A program made the position numbers and the translations under genes. Source: Alphaproteobacteria bacterium (GTDB lineage Bacteria > Pseudomonadota > Alphaproteobacteria > MPNO01 > VGEU01). Taken from it: a stretch of 64,000 bases of DNA. Below are positions 1 to 50,075 of the stretch, in pieces. Numbering within the stretch: the first letter of the stretch is position 1; each line of letters begins with the position of its first letter. The DNA is taken from assembly GCA_016869145.1 (NCBI GenBank), contig VGEU01000001.1, positions 49,234-113,233 on the forward strand, read 5' to 3'. The notes beneath the pieces are model-generated. The model was not told the origin of the DNA and searched no databases. It was given only the letters and a program-made list of their open reading frames with translations.

Positions 1-2088
1 ATCGTAGACGATGTGCTCGAGCATCGCCTGGCCGATGCCCTGCGCGAGCCCGCCGTGCACCTGGCCCTCGACGATCATCGGGTTGATGATCCGGCCGGCG
101 TCGTCGGCGGTGAAGTAGTCGCGCACACGTATCGCGCCGGTCTCGATGTCGACGAAGACGACGGCGAGGTGCATCGCCTCGGGATCGTTGGTATCGGTCG
201 GCTCGTAGAATTCGGTCTCCTCGAGGCCGGGCGCGATCGAGCGGTCGGGAGGAAGCCGGGCCGCGTGATAGGCGATATCGGCGACCTCGGCGAAGCCGAC
301 CGCGCGGTCCGTGCCGCCGACGCGGAAGACGCCCGCCTCGTAGTCGAGATCTTCGGCCGCGCATTCGAGACGATGCGCCGCGATCCGCCGCGCCTTGTCG
401 CGGACCTTGCGGCAGGCGAGCGCGATCGCGACGCCACCGACGGAGGCCGAGCGCGAGCCCCAGGTGCCGTTGCCATAGGGCACCTGGTCGGTGTCGCCCT
501 CGACGAGGTCGATGTCGGCGATGTCGATGCCGAGCTCGTCGGCGGCGATCTGGCGAAAGGTGATGTTGTGGCCCTGGCCGTGGCTGTGACTGCCGGAGAA
601 CAGCGTCACCTTGCCGTCGCTGTGGACGCGGACGATCGCACTTTCATAGCCGCCATGTAGCCCGCCGCGCGTCGCGAGGTTGCGGCTCGATCCGGTCCCC
701 GACTTGTCGAGAAAGGCGGCGAGGCCGATCCCCATCCAGATGCCCGCGGCGCGGCAACGGGCCTGCTCGCGCCGGAGGGCCGCGTAGTCGGCGACCGCGA
801 GGAGCTTGTCGAGGAGTGCCGGCGGATCGCCGATATCGTAGGTCCGTCCGAGGAGGTTGGGATAAGGGAACTGGTCGGCCCGGATCAGGTTCTTCCGCCG
901 CACCTCGACCACATCGAGCCCCATCTCGCGCGCGCCGTTCTCGAGAAGCCGTTCGTTGACGAACGTCGCTTCCGGCCGCCCCGACCCGCGATAGGCATCG
1001 ACCGAGACCGTGTTGGTGTAGACCCCGCGCACGCGGAGATGCACGGCCGGCGTGGTGTAGAGCCCGGTCACCGTCTGCGGGTAGGAGTTGCCGGGGATCG
1101 ACGGCGCGAACTGGGTGAGATAGGCGCCGAGCGCGGCTATGGTGTCGACCTTCATGGCGACGATGCGCCCCTCGCGGTCGAAGGCCATCGCGGCCCTCGT
1201 ATGGTGGTCGCGCGCCTGGCTGTCGGACATGAACGCCTCCGACCGGCTCGACGTCCATTTGACCGGTCGGCCCATCAGCTTCGCGGCCCAGGTGACGACG
1301 GCACCCTCGGCGATGTGGATCTTGAGCCCGAAGCCGCCGCCCACGTCGGGCGCGACGACGCGGATGCGGTGCTCGGGCTCGAACAGGAGGAATTTGGCGA
1401 GCCAACGCCGGAAATAATGCGGGATCTGCGTCGTGCACCACAGCGTGAAGCGCTCGGTCTCGGCCTCGTATTGGGCGAGGAACGACCGCGTCTCCATCGG
1501 GTTGCCGAGGACGCGGTTGCTGACGAGGGTGAGCTCGGTGACGTGGTGGGCGTCGGCGAAGATCGCCTCGACCGCGGCCTGGTTCCCCTTCTCGATCTCG
1601 AACACGAGATTGGAGCCGATCTCGGTGTGAAGGACGAGCGCGTCGGTATCGAGCGCCCGCATCGTCTCGGTCACCGCCGGCAATGGCGCGTAGGCGACGG
1701 CGACCGCCTCGGCGCCGTCGAGCGCGGCATCGCGCGTCTCGCCGATCACGCATGCGACGACATCGCCGACATGGCAGACCTTGTCCTTGGCGAAGATCGG
1801 CTTGAGCTTCTCATTCATCGGCCGGCCGTCGCTGAACGGCATCGGATGAACGCAGACGAGCTTGCCGAGGCCCGCCTGTTCCCAGTCCGCGATGGTCAGA
1901 ACCCGGAGCACCCCGGCGTGCGCGCGCGCCGGGGACGCATCGACCGAGAGGATACGGGCGTGCGCGTGCGGGCTCCGGACGAAGGCCGCGTGCAGCATGT
2001 CGGGGAGCCGGATGTCGTCGACATAGCGGCCGCGGCCGGTGATGAAACGGCGGTCTTCCGGACGGCGCAGCGCCTTGCCGAAATACAT
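1..2088 (-). CDS. Xanthine dehydrogenase / CO dehydrogenase family molybdopterin-binding large subunit (CoxL-like). N-terminus is in the window; the gene runs off the window start.
   Basis: Manual minus-strand translation from ATG at 2086-2088 with a GGGGGA RBS. It gives MYFGKALRRPEDRRFITGRGRYVDDIRLPDMLHAAFVRSPHAHARI..., and further in GGGFG, GSGRPEA, SRSASVGG and QVHGG-type motifs typical of the Mo-hydroxylase large subunit. It is not in the ORF track because no stop lies inside the window. Confidence 0.75.
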   Translation of the reverse strand, partial: MYFGKALRRPEDRRFITGRGRYVDDIRLPDMLHAAFVRSPHAHARILSVDASPARAHAGVLRVLTIADWEQAGLGKLVCVHPMPFSDGRPMNEKLKPIFAKDKVCHVGDVVACVIGETRDAALDGAEAVAVAYAPLPAVTETMRALDTDALVLHTEIGSNLVFEIEKGNQAAVEAIFADAHHVTELTLVSNRVLGNPMETRSFLAQYEAETERFTLWCTTQIPHYFRRWLAKFLLFEPEHRIRVVAPDVGGGFGLKIHIAEGAVVTWAAKLMGRPVKWTSSRSEAFMSDSQARDHHTRAAMAFDREGRIVAMKVDTIAALGAYLTQFAPSIPGNSYPQTVTGLYTTPAVHLRVRGVYTNTVSVDAYRGSGRPEATFVNERLLENGAREMGLDVVEVRRKNLIRADQFPYPNLLGRTYDIGDPPALLDKLLAVADYAALRREQARCRAAGIWMGIGLAAFLDKSGTGSSRNLATRGGLHGGYESAIVRVHSDGKVTLFSGSHSHGQGHNITFRQIAADELGIDIADIDLVEGDTDQVPYGNGTWGSRSASVGGVAIALACRKVRDKARRIAAHRLECAAEDLDYEAGVFRVGGTDRAVGFAEVADIAYHAARLPPDRSIAPGLEETEFYEPTDTNDPEAMHLAVVFVDIETGAIRVRDYFTADDAGRIINPMIVEGQVHGGLAQGIGQAMLEHIVYD

Positions 2089-2231
2089 GCGTGATCCCCC
2101 TCCCGGTGGCGGCCTCCGTGAGCGTCGGATGGAACACCGACAGGTGTCAATCGGGCGTCGCGCCGGAGCTGCTTTCCTAAATCCGCGGCCGGCCCTACCT
2201 TGATGCCATCGACCTATGATGGGAGGAACGA

Positions 2232-3260
2232 ATGAAGATCACAGGGAGGCTTCCGGCGGCGGCCGCGGCGGCGGCGCTCGTCGCGACGCTCGGGCTCACG
2301 CAGGCGCGCGCCGATACGGCCGCGGACTTCTACCGCGGCAAGACGGTCACGCTCGTCGTCGCCTCGAGCCTCGGCGCCTCGCTCGGGCTCTACGGCCAGC
2401 TCGTCGTCGACCAGATCGGGAAATACATCCCCGGCAATCCGACCGTCATCATCCAGCCGCGTCCAGGCGGCGGCGGCACGGTCGGCGTCGCCCATGTCTT
2501 CAACGTCGCGCCCAAGGATGGGACGGTGTTCTGCCTCATCCTCGCCCCGAGCGTCGTGATGCCGCTCTTCCGCGACGTCAAGTTCGATGCCTCGAAGTTC
2601 CGCTGGGTCGGCTCGATCACGCAGCGCCCGGTGGTCGTCTCGGTGCTCGACAACGCGCCGGCCCGCACGCTCGCGGATGCGAGGAAGACCGAGGTGATCC
2701 TGGGCTCCTCCGGCAAGGGCTCGGAGACCTATCTCGCCCCGGCGCTGATGAACGAGATGCTCGGCACCAAGCTCAAGATCGTCACCGGCTATCAGGGCGG
2801 CGCCGATATCAACATCGCGATGGAACGCGGCGAGGTGCACGGCCGCATGCAGTATTGGGGCGGCTGGACCAGCGTGAAGGCCGACTGGCTCCGCGACGGC
2901 AAGCTCTTCCACTTCCTGCAATACGGGCCGAAGATCGCCGATCTCCCGAACGTGCCGAGCTTCCGTGACCTCGTGAAGACCGACGAGGAACGCCAGATCG
3001 TCGACCTCCTCGAGGTTTCGCCCAATATCGGCATGGCGTTCTTCATGGCCCCCGGCGTGCCCGACGATCGCTACAACGCGATGCGCAAGGCCTTCGAGGA
3101 CCTGATGAAGGATGCGGCCTTCAAGGAGTCCGTCGTCTCCAAGGGGCTCGAGTTCGGCCCGATCGCGGCCGACGAGCTTGCCCGCATCACCGAGCGCGCC
3201 TACCGGACACCGAAGCCGATCATCGAGCGCATGCGCGACATCTTCGGCTTTCCCGGCTGA
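2232..3260 (+). CDS. Periplasmic solute-binding protein, divergent TctC/Bug-like family (paralog 1 of 3)
   Basis: 342 aa with an N-terminal signal peptide (MKITGRLPAAAAAAALVATLGLTQARA). Motifs FYRGKTVTLVV, IPGNPTVIIQPRPGGGG and KIVTGYQGGADINIAMERGEVHG are shared with the paralogs at 5668-6747 and 50076-51113. The PGxGG...DGxT pattern resembles the TctC family. Confidence 0.8.
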   Translation: MKITGRLPAAAAAAALVATLGLTQARADTAADFYRGKTVTLVVASSLGASLGLYGQLVVDQIGKYIPGNPTVIIQPRPGGGGTVGVAHVFNVAPKDGTVFCLILAPSVVMPLFRDVKFDASKFRWVGSITQRPVVVSVLDNAPARTLADARKTEVILGSSGKGSETYLAPALMNEMLGTKLKIVTGYQGGADINIAMERGEVHGRMQYWGGWTSVKADWLRDGKLFHFLQYGPKIADLPNVPSFRDLVKTDEERQIVDLLEVSPNIGMAFFMAPGVPDDRYNAMRKAFEDLMKDAAFKESVVSKGLEFGPIAADELARITERAYRTPKPIIERMRDIFGFPG

Positions 3261-3317
3261 GCCTGTCGCAACGGAAGAGGGCCGCGGCGCGCGCCGCGAC
3301 CCTCGTCCTGTCGGGGT

Positions 3318-5411
3318 TCAGATCAGGTTGAGATAGAAGATCGAGCGGAGGCCCGGGAAGAGATCCCCCAGAAGCGTCTGCGGCCATGGCTGGACCAGGA
3401 TCAGATGGAACAGCACGTAGACGAAGATCCAGACAGGCACCACGATCTTGAGCGTCGTCACCAGGCTCTCTTTGCCCTGGATGTGCATGTAGGCGATCAG
3501 ATAGACGAGCATCCCCGGCAGGATCCCGATCGTCGCGGCGATCGCGAGATAGCCGAGAAGCCAGGCGAAGAACGCGAAGGTGCGCCCCCAGAACTGTTGC
3601 TTGGTGAGGCTGCTGTAGTCGGTCTGGAGGTCGAGGTGGCCGGTATCGACCTGCTGCTGGCGACGCGGATCGAAGGCGAGGAACGCCTCCTTGGGCTTGT
3701 CGGCCGGCACATCGCCGCGCACCGGCTTGAACAGAAACCCGATCGCGAGCATCGCGACGGTGAAGACGACGCCGGACCACGCGATCACCTGCGGCACGAG
3801 CCGCGCGCCGAACTCCCAGCCGCGCGAGGACCACAGCGCATAGGCGAAGAACAGGAACACGAGGAACGTGAACACGAGATCGGGCGAGATATTGCCCGGG
3901 CTCCAGCGCAGCCGGGGCCCGCCGCTGCCGCGCGCCATGAACGAGCGGATGATCGGCGACAGGATGCCGTAGAGCGTCAGCAGCAGCATGACGACGACGA
4001 CCGGCCGCCACATCCAGCTCGCGCCATAGCGCTCGACCGAGATGAACATGTAGCGCTCAATCAGGCCGCCCAGGATGAATCCGAGCAGCATCGGCGGCCG
4101 CGGCCATTTGAGAAGCTTCATGATCCAGGCGAGCACGCCGATGCCGAGGAGAACATAGAGGTCGCCCCACGACTTCGAGCCCTCCATCGCGCCGATATAG
4201 GTGATGCCCATGATCAGCGGCACGAGGATGCTGGCGCGCACCAGCGCGAGCTTGGCGAGCTGGTTGGCGAAGAAGAAGCAGATGCCGGCGCCGAAGATGT
4301 TGGCGACTGCGATCGACCACACCAGCGTGTAGGTGATGTTGAGATTCTTGGTCAGCATCTCCGGACCCGGCACGATGCCGTGGATCAGGAAGGCGCCGAG
4401 AATGAGGGCCTGCGAGGCCGATCCGGGCACGCCGAAGGCGACCGTCGGAACGAGCGCGCCGCCCTCGCGAGCGTTGTTGGACGCCTCGGAGGCGATCACG
4501 CCGCGGATATCGCCGCGGCCGAAGGTCTCCTGCGCGCCTTTCTCGGTCCGGGCGGCATGGCCGTAGGCGATCCAGTCGACGACCGAGGACGACATGCCGG
4601 GGACGGTGCCGAGGCCTGCGCCTATCGCCGAGCAGCGGCACATCAGGAACCAGTGCTTCATCACGTCCTTGAAGCCCTCAATCTGGGCCGCCTTGGTCGT
4701 GATCATCGCCTTCTTGGCAACCGTCGACTGGGTGATCGCGAGATCGGCGATCTCGGGGATCGCGAACACGCCGAGGGCGATCGGGACGACGGAGAGCCCG
4801 TCCCAGAGATAGAGGGTGTCGAAGGTCCAGCGCAGCGTTCCCGTCTGCGGGTCGTCACCGACGGTCGCGAGCAGGATGCCCATCGCCGCGGCCGAGAGGC
4901 CCTTGAGCGGCGAGGAGCCGCTGAGCACGGCGACCAGCGAGAGGCCGAACAGGCAGAACGACAAGAGCTCCGGCGAGCCGACCAGGAGCACGATCGGCCG
5001 GAGCACCGGCACGAGAAGGCCGAGGAGGAGCGCCCCGAACAGCCCGCCGAGAACCGACGCCCCGAAGGCGGCGCCGAAGGCACGGCCGGCCTCGCCCTTG
5101 CGCGCCAACGGATAGCCGTCGAGCACGGTCGCGGCACAGCCGACGCTGCCCGGGACCCCGAACAGGATCGCCGGAATGCTGTCGGAGGTGACGTTGACCG
5201 CGAGCACGCCCACCATCATCGCGAGCGCCGCATAGGGGTCCATGTCGAAGGAGAACGGCAGGAGGATCGACAGCGCGACGATGCCGCCGATGCCGGGGAC
5301 GATGCCGACGAAGAGGCCGATCGCGACGCCCAGCACCAGGAAGACGAGCCGGGGCGGATCGAACAGGATGCCGAGGGCCGTCAGCGCGGAACCCAGCATG
5401 TCGACTTCCAT
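3318..5411 (-). CDS. Tripartite tricarboxylate transporter large permease (TctA family) with a C-terminal TctB-like small-permease extension (fused TctA-TctB)
   Basis: Start chosen at MEVDMLGSALT (M46 of the 742-aa ORF; RBS GGAGAGG). The TctA signature GIVPGIGGIVALSILLPFSF is present. About 500 aa of TctA-like TM helices are followed by about 200 aa of an extra hydrophobic 4-TM domain. Confidence 0.8.
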   Translation of the reverse strand: MEVDMLGSALTALGILFDPPRLVFLVLGVAIGLFVGIVPGIGGIVALSILLPFSFDMDPYAALAMMVGVLAVNVTSDSIPAILFGVPGSVGCAATVLDGYPLARKGEAGRAFGAAFGASVLGGLFGALLLGLLVPVLRPIVLLVGSPELLSFCLFGLSLVAVLSGSSPLKGLSAAAMGILLATVGDDPQTGTLRWTFDTLYLWDGLSVVPIALGVFAIPEIADLAITQSTVAKKAMITTKAAQIEGFKDVMKHWFLMCRCSAIGAGLGTVPGMSSSVVDWIAYGHAARTEKGAQETFGRGDIRGVIASEASNNAREGGALVPTVAFGVPGSASQALILGAFLIHGIVPGPEMLTKNLNITYTLVWSIAVANIFGAGICFFFANQLAKLALVRASILVPLIMGITYIGAMEGSKSWGDLYVLLGIGVLAWIMKLLKWPRPPMLLGFILGGLIERYMFISVERYGASWMWRPVVVVMLLLTLYGILSPIIRSFMARGSGGPRLRWSPGNISPDLVFTFLVFLFFAYALWSSRGWEFGARLVPQVIAWSGVVFTVAMLAIGFLFKPVRGDVPADKPKEAFLAFDPRRQQQVDTGHLDLQTDYSSLTKQQFWGRTFAFFAWLLGYLAIAATIGILPGMLVYLIAYMHIQGKESLVTTLKIVVPVWIFVYVLFHLILVQPWPQTLLGDLFPGLRSIFYLNLI

Positions 5412-5620
5412 GAACCTCTCCCCGTTCCTGGCTGTGGCCATAGCCCTCTCGGCGGGACCTTTGGTCGGCGTCGATGTCGCCGTCGCGTATGGTCGCGCGC
5501 CGTTTTTGCGGCTCGCGATCCGAGCCGAAACACCCAGCGCTGTCAATACGCGGATATGAACGGCCCGGCGCTGCGACGTTCGGCGTCACCGGTCCAGGGC
5601 CCGCCGCGCGGCCCCGATCC

Positions 5621-5671
5621 GGGTCAGGTCACCGGGTCATGTCACCGGGCAAGATCACCGGGTCATGTCAC
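5621..5671. repeat. Short direct repeats (TCACCGGG x3; GGTCATGTCAC x2) overlapping the stop codon of the binding-protein gene and lying in the 256-nt gap before the tctA-like gene
   Basis: Sequence gggtcaggtcaccgggtcatgtcaccgggcaagatcaccgggtcatgtcac read directly. Confidence 0.6.
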
Positions 5672-6747
5672 TTGCGGCCGATCGCCTGCTTCACCGCGGC
5701 CTTGGCCTCCGGCGAGGTCTTGGCGAGCTGGGCGAGATAGCTCCGCCCATCCTCGGGGCTCACGAGCTCCGGCTGCACCCCGATCACCCGCACATGGTCG
5801 TCGAGGAAATCCTTGTCTTTCATGAGTGAAACAAACGCCTTGTAGAGCTCGTTTATGGGCTCCGCCGGCGTGTTGGGCGGCATCAGTATGCCGCGCGACA
5901 GCCGCGTCGAGACGTCGGTAATAACCCGGTAGGCCTCGTATTGCGGGCCGGACGGCTTCTTACCGTGCGCCTCGGCGTAGACATCGGCGAAGGATTTGAT
6001 CCCCTGCCGCTCGTGCTCGGCGCTGCCGATCTCGCGGCCGTCGGGCGTGGAGACGCCATAGACCCACATCGGCATCGCGTGGCCGGGCCGGATCAGGTTG
6101 GGAAGCACCTGGCTGTAGAACGCGGGCGCCGAGCTCGATGTGAAATTGATCTCGCGCCGCTCCATCGCCTGGTTCACCTCGCCCGCCGACTGGAACCCGG
6201 TCACGACCTTGAACTTGGCGCCCATCATGTCGAGCGTGAGATGGAGCCGGACATCGTGGTTCGAGGACGCGGCGTAGCCGGCGGCGAACACATCGAACCC
6301 TTTCGCCATGTCGGCGGGTTTGGCGATCCCCGGCTTGATGTCCTTCCGACCATAAGCGACGATCCAGCCGCCGAGACCGGCGACGAGCCCGAACTTCTCG
6401 TACGGCACGCGGAGCACCGGGTCGTCGACCATCGGGGCGATCGGGTTGAGCGTGACGAACCCGACGGTCAGCCCGTCCGGCTTGCCCAGCACCCCCATCC
6501 CGAGCTGGTTGATCGCCGACATGCCCCCGGCACCTGCCACGTTCTGAACGACGATGGTGGGATTGCCCGGGATGTGCTTGGCCAGATGGCGGACATAGAC
6601 GCGCGCCTCGGTGTCGATGTTGCCACCGGCGCCGTAGTTGACGACGACGGCGAGGATCTTGCCCTCGTAGAAATTGGCCGCGTTCGCGGGGCCGGCCATT
6701 GCAGCCAGCACCAACGCGAACGCCAGTACCGAACGACGCTTGGTCAT
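5668..6747 (-). CDS. Periplasmic solute-binding protein, divergent TctC/Bug-like family (paralog 2 of 3)
   Basis: 359 aa with signal peptide MTKRRSVLAFALVLAAMAGPANA. Motifs FYEGKILAVVV, IPGNPTIVVQNVAGAGG and KVVTGFQSAGEVNQAMERREI. It lies upstream of the fused tctA-like gene on the same strand. Confidence 0.85.
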   Translation of the reverse strand: MTKRRSVLAFALVLAAMAGPANAANFYEGKILAVVVNYGAGGNIDTEARVYVRHLAKHIPGNPTIVVQNVAGAGGMSAINQLGMGVLGKPDGLTVGFVTLNPIAPMVDDPVLRVPYEKFGLVAGLGGWIVAYGRKDIKPGIAKPADMAKGFDVFAAGYAASSNHDVRLHLTLDMMGAKFKVVTGFQSAGEVNQAMERREINFTSSSAPAFYSQVLPNLIRPGHAMPMWVYGVSTPDGREIGSAEHERQGIKSFADVYAEAHGKKPSGPQYEAYRVITDVSTRLSRGILMPPNTPAEPINELYKAFVSLMKDKDFLDDHVRVIGVQPELVSPEDGRSYLAQLAKTSPEAKAAVKQAIGRK

Positions 6748-6810
6748 GGAGCCTCCTCCCGGACGACGCCGACGCGCCGCCCGCCCGACGATGGGTTGAA
6801 CGCGACAGAC

Positions 6811-7983
6811 CTAGTCCGGCCAGGCCTCCAGAAGCTCGATCGGCTCGCCGTACTGGCGCGCGGCCTTGATCACGCGCTCGGTCCGGAGCGCGGTCAGGAA
6901 GCCGTCCCGGATCAGGACGTTGTTTCCGGCCGTGACGGTCGAATCGAGGCTGATGAGGTCCATGTGGACCGGCGGCTCCTCCCAGTGCGGAATCACCTTC
7001 TTGACGTACTCGGAGGGCTTGGCGAGCTCGATCCCCCAGTGCAACGCGCCGGTATTGTTCGAGCCCGCGGGATAGATGCCGGTGCGCGGCGCTTTCGGGT
7101 TGAAACCGCAGCCGAGCTCCTGCAACACGCCGCCGACCAGCATGTCGCGGAGGATCTCCGCCTCCTTCGAGCGTCCCTCGACGCGGGTGATCTTGTCCTT
7201 CTCGAAGATGACGGCGATCTTTTCCTTGAACGGCTCGGGGAAGCCGACCGCCCATTGCGGATAGAACACGCCCTCGACGTCGTTGACCGCGTGCTTGTCG
7301 GCCTTGGTCTGGCGGTCATAGACATTTGGCCCGTGCGTCGGCAGCCAGTGGACATAGGCGCCGGGCTCGTCCGCCGTCATGTGGCCGCGCCAGCGCGTCT
7401 GATCGAGCATCCGGTTCCGCATGTCGGGGGTGAACCGCGCCCGCCAGTCGGAACCGCGCGGATCGGTGATCTTCAGCTCGAAGTTCTCGTTCTCGGGATA
7501 CATGTCCCGCGTGGCGCGGATGATCTCTCCGACGAGATCGACCGGGAAGCGTGCCTGCGGCGTCTTCAGCATGTCGAGATTGCGGAAATACGTGATCTTG
7601 ACCGAGCGCTGACCGGTGTCGCGGCGGACCTTGAGGCAATAGTCGTCGCCGATCGAGGCGAACCAGGTCGTGACGACGAATGTCGCCTTCTCATAGGCCT
7701 GCTTGAGCTCGTCGGGAAACACGCCGGAGTTCCAGTCGTGGCGCATGTACTCGTCCGGCTGCACGCCGCGAGCCCGGCAAAGCCCGCGGATCGCGTGGAA
7801 CACGCGCGGATCGATCAGCGGGTCGGACAGGAAGACGACCTTGTCGCTGGGCCGGATCGCGAACACCTTGTTGAAATTGTCGATCGCCTGGAAGTACTCG
7901 GCGACGCGGGTCGTCTCGAACGGATTGGGCGGCGTGATCGCCGTCCCCATGATCTTATGCTGGTCGACCGGATATTCGATCAT
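6811..7983 (-). CDS. Hypothetical protein, M29 aminopeptidase-T / NicX (2,5-dihydroxypyridine dioxygenase)-like fold (tentative)
   Basis: Start at MIEYPVDQHK (M60 of the 449-aa ORF; RBS GGGAG; 4-nt ATGA overlap with the upstream ykgJ-like gene). The C-terminal region (GSNNTGALHWGIE ... VHMDLISLD) resembles the GxNxS/TxxHxD metal-site pattern of the M29/NicX family. This is a weak assignment made from memory. Confidence 0.5.
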   Translation of the reverse strand: MIEYPVDQHKIMGTAITPPNPFETTRVAEYFQAIDNFNKVFAIRPSDKVVFLSDPLIDPRVFHAIRGLCRARGVQPDEYMRHDWNSGVFPDELKQAYEKATFVVTTWFASIGDDYCLKVRRDTGQRSVKITYFRNLDMLKTPQARFPVDLVGEIIRATRDMYPENENFELKITDPRGSDWRARFTPDMRNRMLDQTRWRGHMTADEPGAYVHWLPTHGPNVYDRQTKADKHAVNDVEGVFYPQWAVGFPEPFKEKIAVIFEKDKITRVEGRSKEAEILRDMLVGGVLQELGCGFNPKAPRTGIYPAGSNNTGALHWGIELAKPSEYVKKVIPHWEEPPVHMDLISLDSTVTAGNNVLIRDGFLTALRTERVIKAARQYGEPIELLEAWPD

Positions 7984-8387
7984 CGCTTGCTCCCGATGCC
8001 CTTGGTGACGGACTGACGGTCGTGCGGCTCGCCCGCTTCGCGCGGGTCGAGGAGCTTGTAGCGGCGGGCGAGATCGTGACCGGCCGCGCGCGACAATGGC
8101 TCGAGTGGCCCGCGACCGTGCGGGCAACGCATGTCCTCGACGGCGCCGAACAATCGGCACATGAACGGTCGTCGATCGTGGATATCACAGCGGCCCTGGA
8201 GCGACAACGGGCAGCGCCCGTCGTCGGGGAGCGCGGGCACCGCGTCGAGACCGCCGCGGCGGAGCTCGTGCGCGGTCCACGGCACCGGCCCGCAGCAATC
8301 GGTGCAGCCCTCGATGCAGATGAAGGACGGGATCTTCTTGTACAGGCGCTCGTGGCGCTTCGCGTCCCTCGCCCGGTCGGCCATCAT
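7980..8387 (-). CDS. YkgJ-family (UPF0153) CxxCxxCC zinc/iron-sulfur cluster protein
   Basis: 135 aa; the CIEGCTDCC motif (CxxCxxCC) plus additional Cys residues. It is translationally coupled to the downstream gene. Confidence 0.7.
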   Translation of the reverse strand: MMADRARDAKRHERLYKKIPSFICIEGCTDCCGPVPWTAHELRRGGLDAVPALPDDGRCPLSLQGRCDIHDRRPFMCRLFGAVEDMRCPHGRGPLEPLSRAAGHDLARRYKLLDPREAGEPHDRQSVTKGIGSKR

Positions 8388-8451
8388 CGCCCCCCTCGCC
8401 GGTCGAGGCGACGGCGACCGCCGCGCGCCCCGGTCGCGTATGCCCTCCCGG

Positions 8452-9690
8452 TCACGCAGGCGGCTTGTAGCTCGGAAACCGCTCGCTGACGTCGAGGTTG
8501 AACAGCCGTCGCGCGTTCTCGCCGAGGATGTTGCGCTTGGCCTTCTCCGACAGGAACGGAAGGTCCCATACGGTGTTGGGCAGATCCATATCCCAGTGCG
8601 GATAGTCGGAGGCGTAGAGAAGTTGCGTCTCGGCGTTGATGGCCCGGAACGTCGCCTCGAGGAGGTAGGTGTCGTTGGCGTGGTCGGGCCGTTCCATCGG
8701 CTGGGTCGTATAATACATCTCGCGCATGTATTCGGACGGCAGCCGCTTGAGCGAGGGACACTCCGAGGAACGCATGCGGAACTCGGTGTCGATCCGCTGC
8801 ATCAGCCACGGCACCCAGGCGATCCCCGACTCGATCCAGATCGTCTTGAGCTTCGGGAACCGCTCGGGGAGCCCGTTGACCACCCAGTTGGTGCAGTGGA
8901 CGACATTGTGCCAGGTGAAGCCGAGGGCGTGGACGGCGATGAAGCGGTTGCAGTTCTTGAGCAGCGGATCGTCCCAATTGAAGCCGGAATGGAATCCGAT
9001 CGGCTTGCCCATCTCCTCGCAGAGCGCATAGATCTTCATGTAGTCGTTGTCGTGGATCGGCTTGTGGCGGACCGTCGTCACCATGAAGCCGATGACGCCC
9101 GGGCAGTCGCCGAAGTCCTGGACCATCCGATAGGCCGCCTCGTGGTCGTTGAGCGGGAGGAACAGCATGGTCTTTATGCGCGACGAGCCGGGCAGGACCT
9201 TCTCGACGAGCCAGCGGTTATAGGCGCGCGCCAGGTTGGCCTCGACCTCGGCCTGCGGGTGCATGGCGAGACCGAGCATCGGGGTCGGGAACATGCAGGT
9301 GTAGTCGACGCCCATCGCATCCATCCAGCGATGGGTCAGATGGACGTCGCGGTGGCGGCCGTCCTTGGGCGTCGGCTCGATCCGGCGCAACGGATAGCGC
9401 GTGACGCGCCCGCCGATGTCCTGATAGCCGACGCGGCCCATCGAGAACATGCCACCGCGCTGGTTGACCAGGCGGCTCGCCTCGGCGAGCTGCTTGAGGA
9501 CCGGGTCCTCGATGAACTCGATGATCTCGCCGTAGGAATCGCTCTCGTAATGGTGCGAGTCGACATCGATGATCAGGACGTCCTGGAACTTCCGCTCGTC
9601 GCGTTGGCGCGCGGCATTGGCGAGGAGCGTCGTGGTGTCGAAGCTCTCGACACTGTGCTTGTAGTACTGCTCGCTGGTCGGAAGGTCCAT
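8452..9690 (-). CDS. Amidohydrolase_2 (ACMSD/LigW-type metal-dependent decarboxylase/hydrolase family) protein
   Basis: 412 aa. The N-terminus has IIDVDSHHYES, an internal HSGF motif and a C-terminal SDYPHWD motif, all typical of PF04909 amidohydrolase 2. Confidence 0.85.
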   Translation of the reverse strand: MDLPTSEQYYKHSVESFDTTTLLANAARQRDERKFQDVLIIDVDSHHYESDSYGEIIEFIEDPVLKQLAEASRLVNQRGGMFSMGRVGYQDIGGRVTRYPLRRIEPTPKDGRHRDVHLTHRWMDAMGVDYTCMFPTPMLGLAMHPQAEVEANLARAYNRWLVEKVLPGSSRIKTMLFLPLNDHEAAYRMVQDFGDCPGVIGFMVTTVRHKPIHDNDYMKIYALCEEMGKPIGFHSGFNWDDPLLKNCNRFIAVHALGFTWHNVVHCTNWVVNGLPERFPKLKTIWIESGIAWVPWLMQRIDTEFRMRSSECPSLKRLPSEYMREMYYTTQPMERPDHANDTYLLEATFRAINAETQLLYASDYPHWDMDLPNTVWDLPFLSEKAKRNILGENARRLFNLDVSERFPSYKPPA

Positions 9691-9803
9691 GGCTCTCTCC
9701 CCGGGTCCTGGGCTCGGCGCAGTCTAGTGCAGGATGCCGCCGGAACGGAACGGGCCGCCGACTGTCGCCGGCGGCCCGCCTCGATCACGGTCGCATGACC
9801 GCT

Positions 9804-10790
9804 TTACTTCGTCAGATTGGCCTTGAGCGCGATCTCGCGAAGCTCCTTCGCACCGTCCGCGCAGCACTGTTTGGTCACTTCCCACAGGCTCTCCGACCAC
9901 ACCTTGTTGATGAGGTCGATCTTGTCCTTGGGCAGCATGACGTCCTTGACGCCGAGCTTCATGAGCTCGTCGTCCTCGAGCTTCTGGATCGCATCGCCTT
10001 GGGCGGGCATCTCCTTCTCGAGGCGGAGGCCGACGTCGAGGAGGATCTTCTGCTCCTCGGGCTTCAACCGGCCCCAGCGGGCGAGGTTGACGAAGATCGG
10101 CACGTTCGAGGTGCCGAAGGTCGGCCGCATGCGGAACTTCGCGACCTCGAAATGCTTCATCGTGAGCATTCCCGCGGCCGGCCAGGCCGCGCCGTCGATC
10201 ACACCCTTCTCGAGCGCCGTGTAGATCTCGCCGCCGGGCAGCACGACCGGCGAGCCGCCGAGCGCCCGGATGACACCGTGATAGCTCTGCGTGCCGCGGA
10301 CCTTGCGGCCCTTGAAATCGCCCTCGGCCGTGAGCGGCTCCTTGAGGAAGATGTGGTAGCCCTGGTTGCTGCTCGCCGGCAGGCTGACGAGCTTCAACCC
10401 GTGCTGCTTCTGATAATACTGGTCGATGAAGTTCCACACCCCGGCCGAACGGCGCTTATCGACATCATACTCGATGGCATCCATGACCAGCGCGATGCCC
10501 TTCGCGCCGGCATGGTAGACGCCGTGGGTGAAGAGCATGTCGAAGACGCCCGACGTCACGGGCTGGAGCTGCTGGAACGGCGGCACCACCTCTTCGGAGA
10601 AGATCTGGATCTCGAGCTGCCCCTTCGAGGTCTCGGCGACCCATTTCTGGTAGTTGTCGATCGGCACGTAGGTCGGCCAGTTGTTCTTGCCCCAGCTGCT
10701 CAGGAGCCGCAGCTTGGTCTGGGCGTCGGCCGACATTGGCAGGCCCACGAAGATGCAGAGCGCCAGTCCCAGCGCCAGCAGACGTCGCAT
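9804..10790 (-). CDS. TRAP transporter substrate-binding protein (DctP family), tandem copy A
   Basis: Start at MRRLLALGLALCIFVGLPMSADA (signal peptide) inside the 569-aa ORF. It is about 75% identical to the copy at 10880-11866 (RGTQSYHGVIRALGGSPVVLP and AAWPAAGML are shared). Confidence 0.85.
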   Translation of the reverse strand: MRRLLALGLALCIFVGLPMSADAQTKLRLLSSWGKNNWPTYVPIDNYQKWVAETSKGQLEIQIFSEEVVPPFQQLQPVTSGVFDMLFTHGVYHAGAKGIALVMDAIEYDVDKRRSAGVWNFIDQYYQKQHGLKLVSLPASSNQGYHIFLKEPLTAEGDFKGRKVRGTQSYHGVIRALGGSPVVLPGGEIYTALEKGVIDGAAWPAAGMLTMKHFEVAKFRMRPTFGTSNVPIFVNLARWGRLKPEEQKILLDVGLRLEKEMPAQGDAIQKLEDDELMKLGVKDVMLPKDKIDLINKVWSESLWEVTKQCCADGAKELREIALKANLTK

Positions 10791-10879
10791 CGTATTCACT
10801 CCCTGTTGGTCATATCGCGATGGTCCGCAGTCTAACCATGTGACCGCGGGCCGTACAATATCGGTCTCGGCGGTGGCCG

Positions 10880-11866
10880 CTACTTGGTCATGCCCGCCTT
10901 GAGCGCGATCTCGCGGAGCTCCGGCGCGCCGTCGCCACAGCACTGCTTGGCGAGCTCCCAGAGGCTCTCCGACCAGACCTTCTTCACGAGCTCCGCCTTC
11001 TCCGGCGAGAGCTGGAGGTCCTTCACGCCGAGCTTGGCGAGCTCGACATCCTCGTTCTTGAGGATCGCATCGCCGAGTGCCGGCATCTCTCGCTCGAGCC
11101 GCAGCCCGGCGTCGAGCAGAACCTGCTGCTCGGCCGGCGTGAGCGTGCCCCATTTCGCGATGTTGATCAGGATCGGCTCGTTCGAGGTGCCGAAGGTCGG
11201 CCGGACACGGAACTTCGCGACCTCGTAGTGCTTCATGCTGAGCATGCCGGCCGCCGGCCAGGCCGCTCCCTCGACGACACCCTTCTCGAGCGCGGTGTAG
11301 ATTTCGCCCGGCGGCAGCACGACCGGCGAACCGCCGAGCGCCCTGATGACGCCGTGATAGCTCTGCGTGCCGCGGATCTTCCGTCCCGCCCAGTCGCCGG
11401 CCGGAGACAGCGGCTCCCTGAGAAAGACGTGGTAGCCGTGATTGCTGGCCGCCGGTATGGCGACGGCACGCAGGTTGTGGTGCCGCTGGTAGTAGCGGCT
11501 GACGAACTCCCACACACCCGAGGCGCGCCGCTTGTCCGGATCGTGGTCGATCGCGTCGAGGACGAGCGCGATGCCCTTGGCGCCGGCGTGGTAGACGCCG
11601 TGGGTGAAGAGCATGTCGAACACGCCGGAGGAGACGGGCTGGAGCTGCTGGAACGGCGGCACGACGTCGTCGGCAAAGATCGTGATCTGGATCGCGCCCT
11701 TGCTCATCTCGTGGACGTATTTCTGGTAGTAGTCGACCGCCGCATAGGCCGGCCAGTTCGTCTTGTTCCAGCTCGACAGCAGACGGAGCTTGGTCTGGGC
11801 GTCGGCGCTCGACACGGCGCCGAACAGAACTGACAACACGAACCCCAACGCGATGATGATCCTCAT
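10880..11866 (-). CDS. TRAP transporter substrate-binding protein (DctP family), tandem copy B
   Basis: 328 aa with signal peptide MRIIIALGFVLSVLFGAVSSADA. It is a paralog of the 9804-10790 gene. No DctQ/DctM genes are in the window. Confidence 0.85.
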   Translation of the reverse strand: MRIIIALGFVLSVLFGAVSSADAQTKLRLLSSWNKTNWPAYAAVDYYQKYVHEMSKGAIQITIFADDVVPPFQQLQPVSSGVFDMLFTHGVYHAGAKGIALVLDAIDHDPDKRRASGVWEFVSRYYQRHHNLRAVAIPAASNHGYHVFLREPLSPAGDWAGRKIRGTQSYHGVIRALGGSPVVLPPGEIYTALEKGVVEGAAWPAAGMLSMKHYEVAKFRVRPTFGTSNEPILINIAKWGTLTPAEQQVLLDAGLRLEREMPALGDAILKNEDVELAKLGVKDLQLSPEKAELVKKVWSESLWELAKQCCGDGAPELREIALKAGMTK

Positions 11867-12014
11867 GATGGCGCTCCCCGAATCCGAACCGTCACGGTCG
11901 CCGACAGTTTAGCCGTTCGGCCGGTTTGCGCAATTCGCGATCGGCCCGGCCGCTTGCCCGCCTCCGCCGCCGCCGATAAGGTCTCGCCACCGGAACGCAG
12001 AGGGAGCAAGAACA

Positions 12015-12776
12015 ATGGCAAAGCCCGTCACCCGCATCGGCACGCCGACGTCGCGCACCGACGTCCTCAAGATGCGGGGCAAGGACACGCTCAGCGATAT
12101 CGTCGGCAAGCGGTCCTTCACCGAGACGTTCTATTTCATCGTGACCGGCAAGCTGCCTAATGCCATGCAGACCAAGGTCTTCGACGCCTGTCTGATCATT
12201 CTGATGGATCATGGCATCACGCCCAACGCGCTGGTCGCGCGGATGGTCGAGGAAGCCTGTCCGGAAGACGTCCAGATCCCGATCGCGGCCGGGCTCCTCA
12301 TGGTCGGCAACAAATATGCCGGCACGATGACCGGCGCGGCGGTGATGTTGAGCGAGGGGATCAAGGCGCCGGACCACCGGGCCTGGGCGGCCGACTATGT
12401 CGCCAAGGCGCGCGCCGCCAAGCGACGGATCGCGGGCTTCGGCCATCCCTATTATTTCCCCGACGATCCGCGCGCCGCGCGCCTGTTTGAGGTGGCGCGG
12501 GAAGCCGGTGTCGATGGAAAATACATACGGCTGATCAAGCTGGTGAGCGAGGAGATCGACAAGGGCGGCAAGCACCTCACGCTCAACGTCACCGGGGCGA
12601 TGGGCGCCCTTCTCTGCGAGATCGACTTCCCGATCCCGGTCATGCGCGGCGTCTCGGTGATCGGACGCGCGGCCGGCCTCGTCTCCCACATCTACGAGGA
12701 GAAGACCAACGGCAACGCGGTCGCCAACGCGGTCATCGACCTCGTCAACAACGTCGAGTATCAGGACCCGGCATGA
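12015..12776 (+). CDS. Citryl-CoA lyase-like protein (short citrate synthase-family protein)
   Basis: 253 aa. The GFGHPYYFPDDPRA motif matches the citrate-synthase catalytic region (GFGHRVY..DPR). Its length fits the citryl-CoA lyase subfamily. Confidence 0.65.
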   Translation: MAKPVTRIGTPTSRTDVLKMRGKDTLSDIVGKRSFTETFYFIVTGKLPNAMQTKVFDACLIILMDHGITPNALVARMVEEACPEDVQIPIAAGLLMVGNKYAGTMTGAAVMLSEGIKAPDHRAWAADYVAKARAAKRRIAGFGHPYYFPDDPRAARLFEVAREAGVDGKYIRLIKLVSEEIDKGGKHLTLNVTGAMGALLCEIDFPIPVMRGVSVIGRAAGLVSHIYEEKTNGNAVANAVIDLVNNVEYQDPA

Positions 12777-13515: not shown

Positions 13516-15867
13516 TCACGCACGCTTGGCCGCCTTCAACGCGGCCCAGATCTTGGCCGGCGTCGCCGGCGTGTCGAGATGGGTCACGCCGCGGGTCGCG
13601 AGCGCATCGAGCACGGCGTTCATCACCGCCGGCAGCGAGCCGGCATTGCCGCCCTCGCCGCAGCCCTTGACGCCGAGCGGATTGGTCCGCGCCGGCACCG
13701 CATGGGTCGAGAACGCGAAGCTCGACAGCGTATCGGCGCGTGGCATGGCGTAGTCCATGTAGGACCCGGTCAAAAGCTGGCCGTCTTCGTCGTAGACGGC
13801 GCCTTCCATCAGCGCCTGGCCGGCGCCTTGGGCGATGCCGCCGTGCACCTGTCCCTCGACGATCAGCGGATTGAGCATGGTTCCGAAGTCGTCGACGACG
13901 GTGTAGCGCAGCATGTCGACCTCGCCCGTCTCAGGATCGATCTCGACCTCGCAGGCATGGCAGCCATTGGGATAGGTCGCGGGCGCGGTGTCGTGCGCGA
14001 GCGCGACGTCGAGTGACGTCGGCAGGCCCTCGGGCACGGTCGCGAGCGTCTTCACCTTCTGGGCCAGCGCGATCAGCCCGATGGTGCGGTCGGTGCCGGC
14101 GACGTGGAACGCACCGCCCCGATACTCGATGTCCTCGACCGCCGCCTCGAGCACGTGTGCGGCGAGCTTCTTGCCGTTCTCGATCACCTTCTCGGAGGCG
14201 GCGAGGATTGCGGTGCCCGAATGGATCGCCGATTTCGATCCGCCCGAGCCGCCGCCGATCACCATCTGGTCGGAATCGTCCTGGCGGACCGTGATGCGGT
14301 CGAACGGAACCTGGAGCTTCTCGCAGAGGATCTGGGCGAAGGTGGTCGCGTGCCCCATGCCGAAATCCTTCGAGCCGGTCCACAGCGTGACGGTGCCGTC
14401 GGGCTCGAAGCGGATGTCCGCGAGCTCCTTGCCGGGCGGCGCGGTGAGCTCGAGATAGGCGCCGATGCCGAAGCCGCGGAGCCGGCCGCGGGCTTCGGAC
14501 TCGCGCCGGCGCGCGGCGAATCCCGCCCGGTCGGCGCGCTCCATCGTCTTGTCGAGGACAGCGACGAAATCACCCGAGTCGTAGGTCATGTCGAGCGGCG
14601 TCTTGTAGGGCATCTGATCCCGCCCGATCAGATTGCGTCGCCGCAGTGCGACCGGGTCGCTCCCGGTCTCGCGCGCGGCCTGATCGATCAGCCGCTCGAG
14701 GATGTATTTCGATTCGGGCCGCCCCGCGCCGCGATAAGGCCCGGTCGGCACCGTGTTGGTCATCACGCATTTCATCGCGACGGCGACCGCCGGCGTCTTG
14801 TAGACGCTCACGATATTGCGGCTCAGCACGTTGGTCGGCGGCGCCGGCCCCATCGAGGTGAGATAGGCGCCCATGTTGCCGTGCCCGGTGATCCGGATCG
14901 CGAGGAAGTTCCCGTCCTTGTCGAGGGCCAACGCGGCATCGACGATGCTGGCCCGCCCCTGGTGATCGGAGAGGAAGCTCTCGGTCCGGTCGGCACGCCA
15001 CTTGACCGGCCGCATCAGCTTGCGCGCGGCATAGAGCACCGAGACGGATTCCGAATAAGGCTGGCCCTTCATGCCGAACGACCCGCCGACGTCTTGGCTG
15101 ACGACGCGGAGCTTCTTGGGATCGATCTTGAACACGCTCTGGGCGATGTTGTTGCGGAGCCCGAACACACCCTGCGAGCCGGTCCAGAGCGTCATCTTGT
15201 CCGACGCGGCGTCATAGGTCGCGAGCGCCGCGCGGGGCTCCATCGCGTTGACGACGACGCGGTTGTTGTCGAGGCGAAGCCGCGTGACGTGCGCGGCCTT
15301 GGCGAAGGCGGCGTCGACGGCCGCCGGATCGCCGAGGAGCCAGTCGAGGCAGACATTGTTCGGCATCTCGGGGTAGATCTGCGGCGCGCCGGGCTTCGCC
15401 CCTTCGACCGCATCGGTGACCGCCGGCAAGGGCTCGATCTCGAGCACGACGAGCTCGGCCGCATCCTGCGCCTGGTCGCGCGTCGCGGCGACGACAACGG
15501 CGACCGCGTCGCCGACATGGCGGACCCGGTCGACGGCGAGCGCCGGCCGGTGCGGGATGATGAGGGGCGAGCCATCGCGGCTCTTGAGCGGCACGACGCA
15601 GGGGAAGCCGCCGAGGCCATCGGCCGCCATGTCGGCGCCGGTGAAGATGTCGACCACCCCCGGCGCGCGTTTCGCCGCCGCGAGGTCGAGCTTTCGGATG
15701 AGCCCGTGCGCCACCGTCGAACGGACCATGACGGCGTGAACCTGGCAGGGCAGGCTCTCGTCGTCGGAATAAAGCCCGCGCCCGGTGAGGAGCCGGGGGT
15801 CCTCGGTGCGGCGGACCGGCTGGCCGATGCCGAAGCGGACGAGATCCAGGGCGCTGTCGTCGGGCAT
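13516..15867 (-). CDS. Xanthine dehydrogenase family molybdopterin-binding large subunit (orphan, no adjacent FeS/FAD subunits)
   Basis: 783 aa, N-terminus FGIGQPVRRTEDPRLLTGRGLY, with GGSFG, GAGRPES and QVHGGIAQG motifs. Confidence 0.9.
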   Translation of the reverse strand: MPDDSALDLVRFGIGQPVRRTEDPRLLTGRGLYSDDESLPCQVHAVMVRSTVAHGLIRKLDLAAAKRAPGVVDIFTGADMAADGLGGFPCVVPLKSRDGSPLIIPHRPALAVDRVRHVGDAVAVVVAATRDQAQDAAELVVLEIEPLPAVTDAVEGAKPGAPQIYPEMPNNVCLDWLLGDPAAVDAAFAKAAHVTRLRLDNNRVVVNAMEPRAALATYDAASDKMTLWTGSQGVFGLRNNIAQSVFKIDPKKLRVVSQDVGGSFGMKGQPYSESVSVLYAARKLMRPVKWRADRTESFLSDHQGRASIVDAALALDKDGNFLAIRITGHGNMGAYLTSMGPAPPTNVLSRNIVSVYKTPAVAVAMKCVMTNTVPTGPYRGAGRPESKYILERLIDQAARETGSDPVALRRRNLIGRDQMPYKTPLDMTYDSGDFVAVLDKTMERADRAGFAARRRESEARGRLRGFGIGAYLELTAPPGKELADIRFEPDGTVTLWTGSKDFGMGHATTFAQILCEKLQVPFDRITVRQDDSDQMVIGGGSGGSKSAIHSGTAILAASEKVIENGKKLAAHVLEAAVEDIEYRGGAFHVAGTDRTIGLIALAQKVKTLATVPEGLPTSLDVALAHDTAPATYPNGCHACEVEIDPETGEVDMLRYTVVDDFGTMLNPLIVEGQVHGGIAQGAGQALMEGAVYDEDGQLLTGSYMDYAMPRADTLSSFAFSTHAVPARTNPLGVKGCGEGGNAGSLPAVMNAVLDALATRGVTHLDTPATPAKIWAALKAAKRA

Positions 15868-15954
15868 GCGATACCTCTGGCAAAAGCGGGTGGCGAAAGC
15901 GGGCGGAGCCGTCTCTTTACCCGAGGCGGCGCGGAACCGGAAGTGAGGAGGTTG

Positions 15955-47060: not shown

Positions 47061-47279
47061 CGTCGCGCTCTCCCTTGGTCGATGCGAGCCGCGTCGGTAT
47101 GGCGGCGGCCCTGGCAGCCAGTCCAACTCATGTTCTCGAAGGCCGGACTATAACGTCTCATCGGCCTCGGGCAACGCCAAACGGCCGGCGATCGGCCGCG
47201 CCGAGCCGATCAAGTTGACTCGCTCAAGCGGCCCCTGCGATGGTGGCGACGCCGCCAACCGACAAGCTTGGAGTTCGCC

Positions 47280-48686: not shown

Positions 48687-48739
48687 CGGCCTTCCGCCAG
48701 CACAGGCACCGGCACCGGCACCAGCAGCATCGTGCCCGC

Positions 48740-49957: not shown

Positions 49958-50010
49958 TCGCGCCACCACTTGGCCGCTGACAAGCCCGGCCGAATCCCGC
50001 ACACTTCCGC

Positions 50011-50052: not shown

Positions 50053-50075
50053 GTCATCCGGTCGAGGAGTCCGTC

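Follow-up and report, generated by a model that had tools for sequence, protein, structure and literature searches.

A fused TctA-TctB permease and adjoining divergent TctC-type binding proteins in an alphaproteobacterial gene neighbourhood

To our knowledge, no binding-protein-dependent uptake systems have been studied less than the tripartite tricarboxylate transporters (TTT), and we know of no structure of any of their membrane components. In the citrate transporter TctCBA of Salmonella enterica and in BctCBA of Bordetella, a TctC-fold receptor is combined with a 12-helix TctA bearing the family motif and a four-helix TctB. The same modules were found in the locus described here, which lies in a 64-kb stretch of alphaproteobacterial DNA, analysed as a whole and called the window below. 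However, the TctCBA genes are ordered C-B-A with separate membrane genes, whereas here the membrane components are fused and, unlike in TctCBA, no TctDE two-component regulator was seen next to the locus. In the sulfolactate transporter SlcHFG of Roseovarius nubinhibens and Chromohalobacter salexigens, another TTT, the gene for the small subunit follows that for the large one (PMC5812351), which is the order needed to yield the fusion seen here; its membrane genes are separate, and the likeness is one of gene order only.

A fused TctAB has already been noted in Paraburkholderia caribensis by Rosa et al. in 2018 (PMC5812351), the sole report on such a fusion that our literature searches yielded. 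As in the window, TctA is followed by TctB in one polypeptide, and the gene of P. caribensis MBA4 matches residues 12-681 of the window permease with 45% identity. This organism belongs to another class, the Betaproteobacteria, and whereas the review presents a rare single case, we find the fusion across numerous Alpha- and Betaproteobacteria, accompanied by a binding-protein clade of its own. The fused DctQM of the TAXI-TRAP transporters, an unrelated family, offers an analogy only: there too, the fusion of the membrane subunits comes with a distinct clade of binding proteins, but the small subunit precedes the large one and an extra linker helix joins them, whereas here the large part comes first and the linker consists of 16 residues predicted to be cytoplasmic.

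Architecture and spread of the fused permease

The permease gene occupies positions 3318 to 5411 on the reverse strand and encodes 697 amino acids, starting with the ATG at 5411, just before which GGAGAGG is found. The exact protein is present in public collections as MBM3485057.1, 'tripartite tricarboxylate transporter permease', for which NCBI places the start four codons later; the naming of fused TctAB proteins by NCBI is routine. The sequence-only reading had described a single open reading frame of 698 residues with a TctA part and a C-terminal domain of four transmembrane segments, and this architecture was borne out, with the length corrected to 697. The TctA domain extends from residue 1 to about 495 (3927 to 5411, reverse strand) and matches Pfam PF01970 (TctA, TC 2.A.80) with 405.6 bits (cut-off 28.9), residues 22-443 covering profile positions 1-423 of 423. 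In the AlphaFold model its last helices are 439-468 and 470-493. The TctA hallmark, as the 2018 review gives it after Winnen 2003, is G-x3-G-x3-G-x2-P-G-x-G in TM1, with a related motif in TM7 (PMC5812351). The corresponding residues G28, G32, G36, P39, G40 and G42 in TM1, and G264, G268, P271 and G272 in TM7, are unchanged across 54 permease orthologs.

The remaining part, residues 499-697 (3321 to 3917, reverse strand), forms a TctB-like four-helix domain. As anticipated, the last 199 residues resemble TctB: they match Pfam PF07331 over practically the full profile (5-137 of 137; E 3.7e-5), and while their 24.4 bits lie below the cut-off of 29.1, the orthologs P0009, P0016 and P0044 score 36.9, 36.4 and 29.3 bits. 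The expected topology was also recovered, with four hydrophobic segments (507-530, 537-566, 610-644 and 648-676) and four confident AlphaFold helices (510-529, 534-560, 604-645 and 650-671; pLDDT 82-93). Helices 2 and 3 are separated by a disordered loop of about 45 residues, with pLDDT below 50 at 564-596, and 19 residues of the domain are invariant among the 54 orthologs. Direct reading of the sequence revealed stretches rich in Arg and Lys in the linker (494-509) and in the loop (561-603), from which the N-terminus of the domain is predicted to be cytoplasmic. An NCBIfam scan gave no match for the permease or for any of the four binding proteins described below and was thus of no help in naming them, and a PDB sequence search with the permease gave no matches.

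That tctB and tctA are normally separate genes, as the sequence-only reading had it, does not make the fusion a novelty, since it has been known since Rosa et al. 2018 and recurs widely. At least 119 non-identical clusters at 90% identity were found among the 120 permease matches listed, with lengths of 692-965 amino acids, nearly all of them about 700, and most of these matches, which come from independent assemblies, bear both PF01970 and PF07331. About 28 of 35 genome or metagenome loci bear fused TctAB, and so do 35 plasmid or chromid records, about 4% of the plasmid records bearing TctA, the carriers including P. caribensis MBA4, S. fredii NGR234, S. meliloti and Paracoccus denitrificans. 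Locus L034 of the Actinomycetota has tctA unfused, and behind it a distinct open reading frame that weakly resembles the TctB domain, which speaks for this gene order as the ancestral one. The fusion is uncommon yet widespread, mainly in Alpha- and Betaproteobacteria, and is no discovery in itself.

Binding proteins beside the permease and beside nadC

The first binding protein, SBP1 (2232 to 3260, forward strand), is a divergent TctC-type periplasmic protein with a signal peptide, called 'hypothetical protein FJX67_00255' by NCBI. It scores 49.9 bits against Pfam TctC (PF03401; cut-off 27), and in the PDB it matches nothing but structures of the TctC family (best E 4e-10). Binding proteins had been said to flank the permease, which they do, but SBP1 lies outside the permease operon: its gene is convergent with that of the permease and therefore a separate transcription unit, only SBP2 being on the permease strand. 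An SBP1 ortholog with 67% identity keeps this convergent position in locus L001, and another, 54-56% identical, lies 5.7 kb from TctAB in locus L040; by this synteny SBP1 is the likely cognate partner of the fused permease. The 57-bp spacer between the convergent genes (3261 to 3317) contains a G+C-rich palindrome, GGGCCGCGGCGCGCGCCGCGACCC, read directly from the sequence, which is probably a bidirectional terminator. A consensus terminator scan did not flag this spacer because the palindrome has no T tract.

SBP2 (5668 to 6747, reverse strand; 'hypothetical protein FJX67_00265' in NCBI) also has a signal peptide and is a very divergent protein of the TctC fold. With Pfam TctC it reaches 12.6 bits, below the 27-bit cut-off, and most of its relatives likewise have no Pfam match. 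Its assignment comes from profile and fold comparisons: the SBP2 family aligned with the SBP1/3 family over the full length in hhalign (probability 100%, E 4.4e-50, 311 columns), its profile matched only TctC/Bug structures in the PDB (best E 3e-17), and the top 17 PDB fold matches of the SBP2 model (pLDDT 93.6) were all TctC/Bug proteins (E 1e-14 to 3e-10, target TM-score 0.69-0.78), the next class being ArrX with E 2e-7. Between SBP2 and the permease lie 256 bp (5412 to 5667), with tandem 13-nt repeats at the SBP2-proximal end, at 5619 to 5670. On its other side, a gene for a 391-aa protein (6811 to 7986, reverse strand) is a conserved partner of SBP2-type genes: in loci L037 and L038, homologs with 52% identity are encoded directly upstream of the SBP2 homologs. 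The SBP2-type genes in other loci have no TctA nearby. The 391-aa protein had no Pfam or NCBIfam match. The sole support for regarding it as a NicX-like 2,5-dihydroxypyridine dioxygenase was a PDB match with E 1.3, which we treat as a lead and not as a finding. No promoters were found in a sigma-70 promoter scan of positions 1900 to 8500.

Some 45 kb away, SBP3 (50076 to 51113, forward strand), a paralog of the SBP1 clade, matches Pfam TctC with 36.7 bits and Bug27 with E 2.7e-4; NCBI lists it as 'hypothetical protein FJX67_00450' with 397 aa, from a different start site. It is encoded directly upstream of nadC (51160 to 52053, forward strand), the quinolinate phosphoribosyltransferase gene, whose product matches the NCBIfam equivalog TIGR00078 with 306 bits (cut-off 198) as well as Pfam QRPTase_N and QRPTase_C. 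About 600 bp downstream of nadC follows a canonical TctC/Bug protein (52644 to 53621, forward strand; Pfam TctC 208 bits), with AdpC 5oei (E 5e-52) and Bug27 (E 4e-43) as PDB matches. No second TctA was detected in the 64-kb window besides that of the fused permease, which leaves the canonical TctC an orphan there, as had been proposed. A TctC-family gene adjoining nadC has a precedent in bug69-nadC, with quinolinate binding by Bug69 and Bug27 (PMC11452294), and the position of SBP3 directly 5' of nadC parallels it, as does the adjoining canonical TctC; SBP3 itself belongs to a divergent clade, and its likeness to Bug27/Bug69 is one of gene position.

Pairwise identity amounts to 33% between SBP1 and SBP3, 26% between SBP2 and either of them, and about 23% between any of the three and the canonical TctC. 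All three are exported, divergent TctC/Bug members with PDB matches to TctC/Bug structures only, and the motifs listed in the sequence-only reading, F-Y/F-x-G-K ... IPGNPT ... KIVTGYxG ... AMERGEV, were confirmed. The claim of three paralogs which share motifs and are distinct from canonical TctC is upheld by these identities and by Pfam scores of 12.6-49.9 versus 208 bits. They had further been taken for one sub-family, and a divergent TctC/Bug branch they are, but not a homogeneous one: SBP1 and SBP3 belong to a large clade, and SBP2 to a separate small one whose members accompany the 391-aa protein and not TctAB. The motif AGGxxD after strand 1 is what we take, from the BugD and Bug27 structures, to be the conserved carboxylate-clamp loop. 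At this site SBP2 has GAGGNID and SBP3 GEGGGYD, while SBP1 has SLGASLG without the Asp, so its ligand chemistry may differ.

Gene partners and alternative explanations

At 8452 to 9690 on the reverse strand lies a gene for an Amidohydrolase_2-fold protein (Pfam Amidohydro_2) which resembles the dinuclear oxygenases of the ARO class. Its best PDB matches are 8sm7 (E 2e-39), SfbO 8sm6, AibH 6m1w and PtmU3 (PMC10811679). We had considered an ACMSD/LigW-type decarboxylase, a candidate discarded because the best solved relatives are dinuclear oxygenases. The protein is 77-83% identical to its counterpart encoded immediately 5' of TctAB in L040 and L001, loci which share with L041 and L042 a conserved operon, DctP-DctQ-DctM-amidohydrolase_2-TctAB, with no tctC within it. 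Binding-protein genes do adjoin other fused permeases. In 19 loci the adjoining protein matches SBP1/SBP3 with a far higher score than canonical TctC, and none is itself canonical; in P. caribensis and Neorhizobium an SBP1/3-type gene lies 1-3 kb from the fused TctAB, in the former about 1.1 kb upstream. About a third of the fused TctAB genes, among them those of L041 and L042, the closest orthologs from large genomes, lack an adjoining binding protein, which makes the pairing frequent and not obligatory. A more divergent binding protein hidden in these loci was sought with a family HMM of 25 SBP1/3-type open reading frames, which found none.

It could be argued that the flanking binding proteins are chance neighbours and that TctAB works alone, as has been proposed for archaeal TctA, or with any orphan binding protein, its conserved partners being the upstream oxygenase-like gene and the TRAP system. 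This would agree with the lack of tctC in the operon shared by the four loci, with the absence of an SBP1-type gene within 7 kb in L041 and L042 and of an adjoining one in eleven further fused loci, and with the orphan state of the SBP2 relatives. However, an SBP1/3-type gene adjoins in 19 loci and other types in none, the exact convergent position of SBP1 is kept in the closest relative (L001), and the characterised TTT systems need their binding protein (PMC5812351), and we consider chance neighbourhood rather unlikely. Far more doubtful still, to the point of being hardly credible, is a scenario in which an ancestral DctP-DctQ-DctM-oxygenase-TctAB operon lost its TRAP membrane genes and kept and duplicated DctP, so that TctAB now serves DctP too. 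It would amount to cross-family binding-protein use by a TTT permease, an idea which the 2018 review puts forward as speculation (PMC5812351).

The permease itself admits two other explanations. The C-terminal 200 residues might be an unrelated four-helix membrane extension and no TctB homolog, in line with their 24.4 bits against the Pfam cut-off of 29.1 and with a library search in which the TctB domain alone recovered only 292 representatives at E <= 1e-3, a sign of poor conservation; the hits were mostly short fragments, which makes this search unusable for counting fused versus free-standing TctB. Yet the match spans the entire TctB profile, orthologs exceed the cut-off, most homologs carry a precomputed PF07331 match, the four helices and the positive stretches on the predicted cytoplasmic side give a TctB-like topology, and TctB is poorly conserved anyway (PMC5812351), all of which makes an unrelated extension very improbable. 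Alternatively, a frameshift or assembly error may have joined separate tctA and tctB genes. The window does come from a MAG contig, and the TctAB frame is broken into pieces in L027 and L035, so errors or pseudogenes occur in the family. Against this, the uninterrupted architecture recurs at 57-67% identity in more than 100 independent clusters, in complete genomes and in finished plasmids of cultured strains, and linker and TctB domain are conserved in register. This conservation, over many independent assemblies, has already refuted an artefact, to which we give practically no credence, and the fusion is not sequencing-derived.

Proposed mechanism and significance

The explanation we prefer, and hold as a whole to be quite probable, is that the locus encodes a TTT-type carboxylate uptake system in which TctA and TctB form one polypeptide and in which the fused permeases pair, as a lineage, with their own divergent SBP1/SBP3-type clade. 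The domain identities, the fold, the conservation of the fusion and the co-occurrence of the clades are established by the data; the direction of transport, the energy coupling, the choice of docking binding proteins and the substrate are inferred. Periplasmic TctC-type proteins would bind an organic carboxylate and hand it over to the TctA domain, which would carry it across the membrane on an ion gradient, with the TctB domain serving as an accessory or scaffold that is permanently attached. The fusion would most likely have originated from a tctC-tctA-tctB gene order, and no extra linker helix would be needed because the C-terminus of TctA and the N-terminus of TctB are both predicted to be cytoplasmic. 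SBP2 may have come as a two-gene module with the 391-aa protein, and SBP3 and the canonical TctC are part of the nadC/UbiD cluster at a distance of 45 kb. Permease sharing has been suggested for orphan Bug proteins, and the window's only permease may likewise serve any of SBP1, SBP2, SBP3 and the canonical TctC.

As for the substrate, for which the sequence-only reading proposed particular heteroaromatic carboxylates, the evidence is gene context. The gene for a molybdenum-hydroxylase large subunit is divergent from SBP1 and also adjoins TctAB in L003-L005, and UbiD decarboxylases and molybdenum hydroxylases are found nearby as well. Together with nadC beside SBP3, this makes aromatic or N-heteroaromatic carboxylates the favoured candidates, and for SBP3 quinolinate-like ligands; citrate can almost certainly be discounted as the substrate.

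Since the fusion was previously noted, current understanding is not overturned, and we regard the observation as a sound improvement of annotation of modest interest. A single-chain TctA-TctB fixes a 1:1 stoichiometry and is a handy target for structural work. Recognition of the SBP1/3 clade improves the annotation of proteins which NCBI often labels 'hypothetical protein', and the link between clade and permease would provide a rule for matching some 'orphan' binding proteins to their permease.

The permease and its C-terminal domain

In the window, with a G+C content of 67.6%, third-position G+C marks a single coding frame for each gene. The permease is encoded at 3318-5411 on the minus strand, from an ATG at 5411 preceded by GGAGAGG to a stop codon at 3318-3320, giving 697 aa. 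The NCBI call, named "tripartite tricarboxylate transporter permease", is 4 codons shorter at the start (5399-5411; 693 aa), and the longer form is better supported. Public collections contain an identical protein, encoded on a 193-kb contig from an "Alphaproteobacteria bacterium" MAG.

The sequence-only reading had described this protein as a TctA-TctB fusion, which was borne out by the TctA and TctB profile matches and four helices. Pfam TctA covers its entire profile with 405.6 bits. When the last 199 residues were scanned alone, they matched positions 5-137 of the 137 in Pfam TctB (E 3.7e-5) with 24.4 bits, under the cut-off of 29.1 bits, and orthologs 60% identical to the permease scored 36.4-36.9 bits. 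Hydropathy indicates four hydrophobic segments in this domain, and an AlphaFold model built from 54 orthologs (mean pLDDT 75, pTM 0.76) places helices at 510-529, 534-560, 604-645 and 650-671 (pLDDT 82-93), with a disordered loop of ~45 residues between helices 2 and 3. Since 19 residues of the domain are invariant across the 54 orthologs, it is under selection. Only 16 residues, rich in arginine, link it to the final TctA helix (470-493), which would suit a cytoplasmic junction and make an extra helix unnecessary.

A TctAB fusion is not new, as it was reported in Paraburkholderia caribensis (Rosa et al. 2018, PMC5812351). In a search of a 5.8-billion-protein database, the majority of the best matches listed carry PF01970 and PF07331 and come from many independent assemblies; among those listed, the 119 non-identical ones have 692-965 aa, nearly all ~700 aa. 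A one-genome-per-species scan gave 35 loci, with a fused gene in ~28 of them, mainly in Rhodospirillales, Xanthobacteraceae and Rhizobiales and in a few Gammaproteobacteria MAGs. In the plasmid collection, TctA was matched in 822 records, 35 of which covered at least 80% of the permease query and were therefore counted as fused. They include P. caribensis MBA4, Caballeronia and Burkholderia species, Sinorhizobium fredii NGR234, S. meliloti, Paracoccus denitrificans and Neorhizobium, so that fused genes are a minority (roughly 4% of the 822 TctA-bearing records), yet widespread. In an Actinomycetota locus (L034), an unfused tctA is followed at once by a separate ORF weakly similar to the TctB domain, the gene order that would give rise to the fusion. 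In two long-read MAG contigs (L027, ~9914-12067; L035, ~9516-12050), the fused frame is split into several overlapping ORFs, a sign of either pseudogenes or homopolymer errors in sequencing.

The binding proteins and the likely partner of the permease

Three divergent binding proteins, all labelled "hypothetical protein" by NCBI, are encoded in the window. SBP1 (2232-3260, plus strand) and the permease gene are convergent, their 3' ends separated by a 57-bp spacer that includes a G+C-rich palindrome. SBP2 (5668-6747) shares the minus strand with the permease, which follows it after 256 bp, and SBP3 (50076-51113, plus strand) and the canonical TctC (52644-53621, plus strand) are 45 kb away. The NCBI version of SBP3 is 52 codons too long (49920-50075; 397 aa); the 345-aa form is better supported and opens with a proper signal peptide. 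The motifs noted from the sequence were found in these proteins, and each of the three signal peptides stops just short of the FYxGK motif. The GGxxD loop of canonical TctC is kept in SBP2 and SBP3 and missing from SBP1.

The claim that the paralogs diverge from canonical TctC held, as Pfam TctC gives 49.9 bits for SBP1, 36.7 for SBP3 and 12.6 for SBP2 versus 208 for the canonical protein. That they form one homogeneous family did not hold, since SBP2 falls in a small clade of its own (288 database hits, most without a Pfam hit). The SBP1 clade is large, with 5527 hits, nearly all Pfam-recognised and some named Bug-family proteins. Aligned to each other, the two clade profiles match over 311 columns (probability 100%, E 4.4e-50), and the PDB matches of both are TctC/Bug structures only. 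In PDB searches with each of the three proteins, TctC/Bug structures were likewise the sole family matched with a meaningful E-value. For the SBP2 structure model (pLDDT 93.6), each of the 17 best-ranked fold matches in the PDB is a TctC/Bug protein, and the best other fold class is weaker by seven orders of magnitude.

Both SBP1 and SBP2 adjoin the permease gene. Among the fetched loci, a binding-protein gene lies beside fused TctAB in 19 cases, and for all 19 products the score with SBP1/SBP3 is much above that with canonical TctC; eleven fused loci, as well as L041 and L042, have no such adjacent gene. P. caribensis and Neorhizobium carry an SBP1/SBP3-type gene within 1-3 kb of fused TctAB. 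In the closest relative (L001), TctAB is 67% identical to the window permease and an SBP1 ortholog, also 67% identical, keeps the convergent position; in L040, the SBP1 ortholog (54-56% identical) is 5.7 kb distant. No SBP2 ortholog was found near fused TctAB, and the SBP2 homologs in L036-L039 are orphans. Because of this pairing, the L001 and L040 orthologs and the location of SBP2 orthologs away from TctAB, SBP1 is the likely cognate partner of the permease.

SBP2 most probably arrived as a module with a 391-aa protein (6811-7986, minus strand) that has no Pfam or NCBIfam hit. In L036, L037 and L038, the SBP2 homolog directly follows a gene without a Pfam hit, with identical gene order in L036 and L037. 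The upstream products in L037 (4658-5851) and L038 (4772-5965) are 52% identical to the 391-aa protein, making this a conserved pair in at least three genomes. Against solved structures, the sole hint for the 391-aa protein was the 2,5-dihydroxypyridine dioxygenase NicX, which is not significant (E 1.3). A tandem array of a 13-nt repeat (5619-5670; TGACNTGACCCGG on the minus strand) has three exact copies and one degenerate fourth between them; it overlaps the SBP2 stop codon and precedes the permease start by ~210-260 bp. The repeat does not occur elsewhere in the window, where 0.46 chance matches are expected, and the array could bind a regulator.

Gene neighbourhood and substrate context

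In L001, L040, L041 and L042, the TctAB ortholog is the last gene of a DctP-DctQ-DctM-Amidohydrolase_2-TctAB operon, with a citryl-CoA-lyase-like gene divergently upstream in L001, L040 and L042. The window retains TctAB, the lyase-like gene (11913-12776, plus strand; short and citrate-synthase-like, NCBIfam citryl-CoA lyase subfamily, 270 bits versus a cut-off of 193) and the Amidohydrolase_2 gene (8452-9690, minus strand). The latter shares 77-83% identity with the gene that immediately precedes TctAB in L040 and L001; in L041 and L042, a gene of the same size and family holds that position. Two tandem TRAP-type DctP genes (9804-10790 and 10880-11866, minus strand) are 72% identical to each other, one of them standing in place of the DctQ and DctM of the four related genomes, both absent across the whole 64-kb window. 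Three genes, encoding a CxxCxxCC protein, the 391-aa protein and SBP2, are inserted ahead of TctAB. A decarboxylase role was considered for the Amidohydrolase_2 protein and rejected, as its best solved relatives (8sm7, E 2e-39; SfbO, AibH and PtmU3) are instead amidohydrolase-related dinuclear oxygenases (PMC10811679). A paralog 38% identical to it lies near the window end (~61852-62919, plus strand).

The sequence-only reading had also proposed heteroaromatic carboxylates as ligands, for which the gene context of hydroxylases, UbiD and nadC is suggestive only. Three large subunits of molybdenum hydroxylases (xanthine dehydrogenase family) are encoded on the minus strand (1-2089, 13516-15954 and 59375-62194), the first divergent from SBP1 with a spacer of ~142 bp, and similar genes adjoin fused TctAB in L003-L005. 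A seven-gene array on the plus strand (47268-55204) comprises UbiD, an MFS transporter, SBP3, nadC, a LOG/lysine-decarboxylase-like gene, canonical TctC and UbiD; after it, two further UbiD genes (55853-59112, minus strand) bring the UbiD decarboxylases to four. The array resembles a module for pyridine dicarboxylates or aromatic acids. The nadC directly downstream of SBP3 is an equivalog match (306 bits versus a cut-off of 198), and this adjacency echoes the bug69-nadC pairing, quinolinate being bound by Bug27 and Bug69 (PMC11452294). By this analogy, a heteroaromatic-carboxylate ligand is reasonable for SBP3; for SBP1 and SBP2 it is unproven.

The original observation is confirmed and its interpretation partly supported. 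The gain is that three binding proteins labelled "hypothetical", SBP1, SBP2 and SBP3, can be named correctly, together with a pairing rule that links fused permeases with SBP1/SBP3-type proteins.
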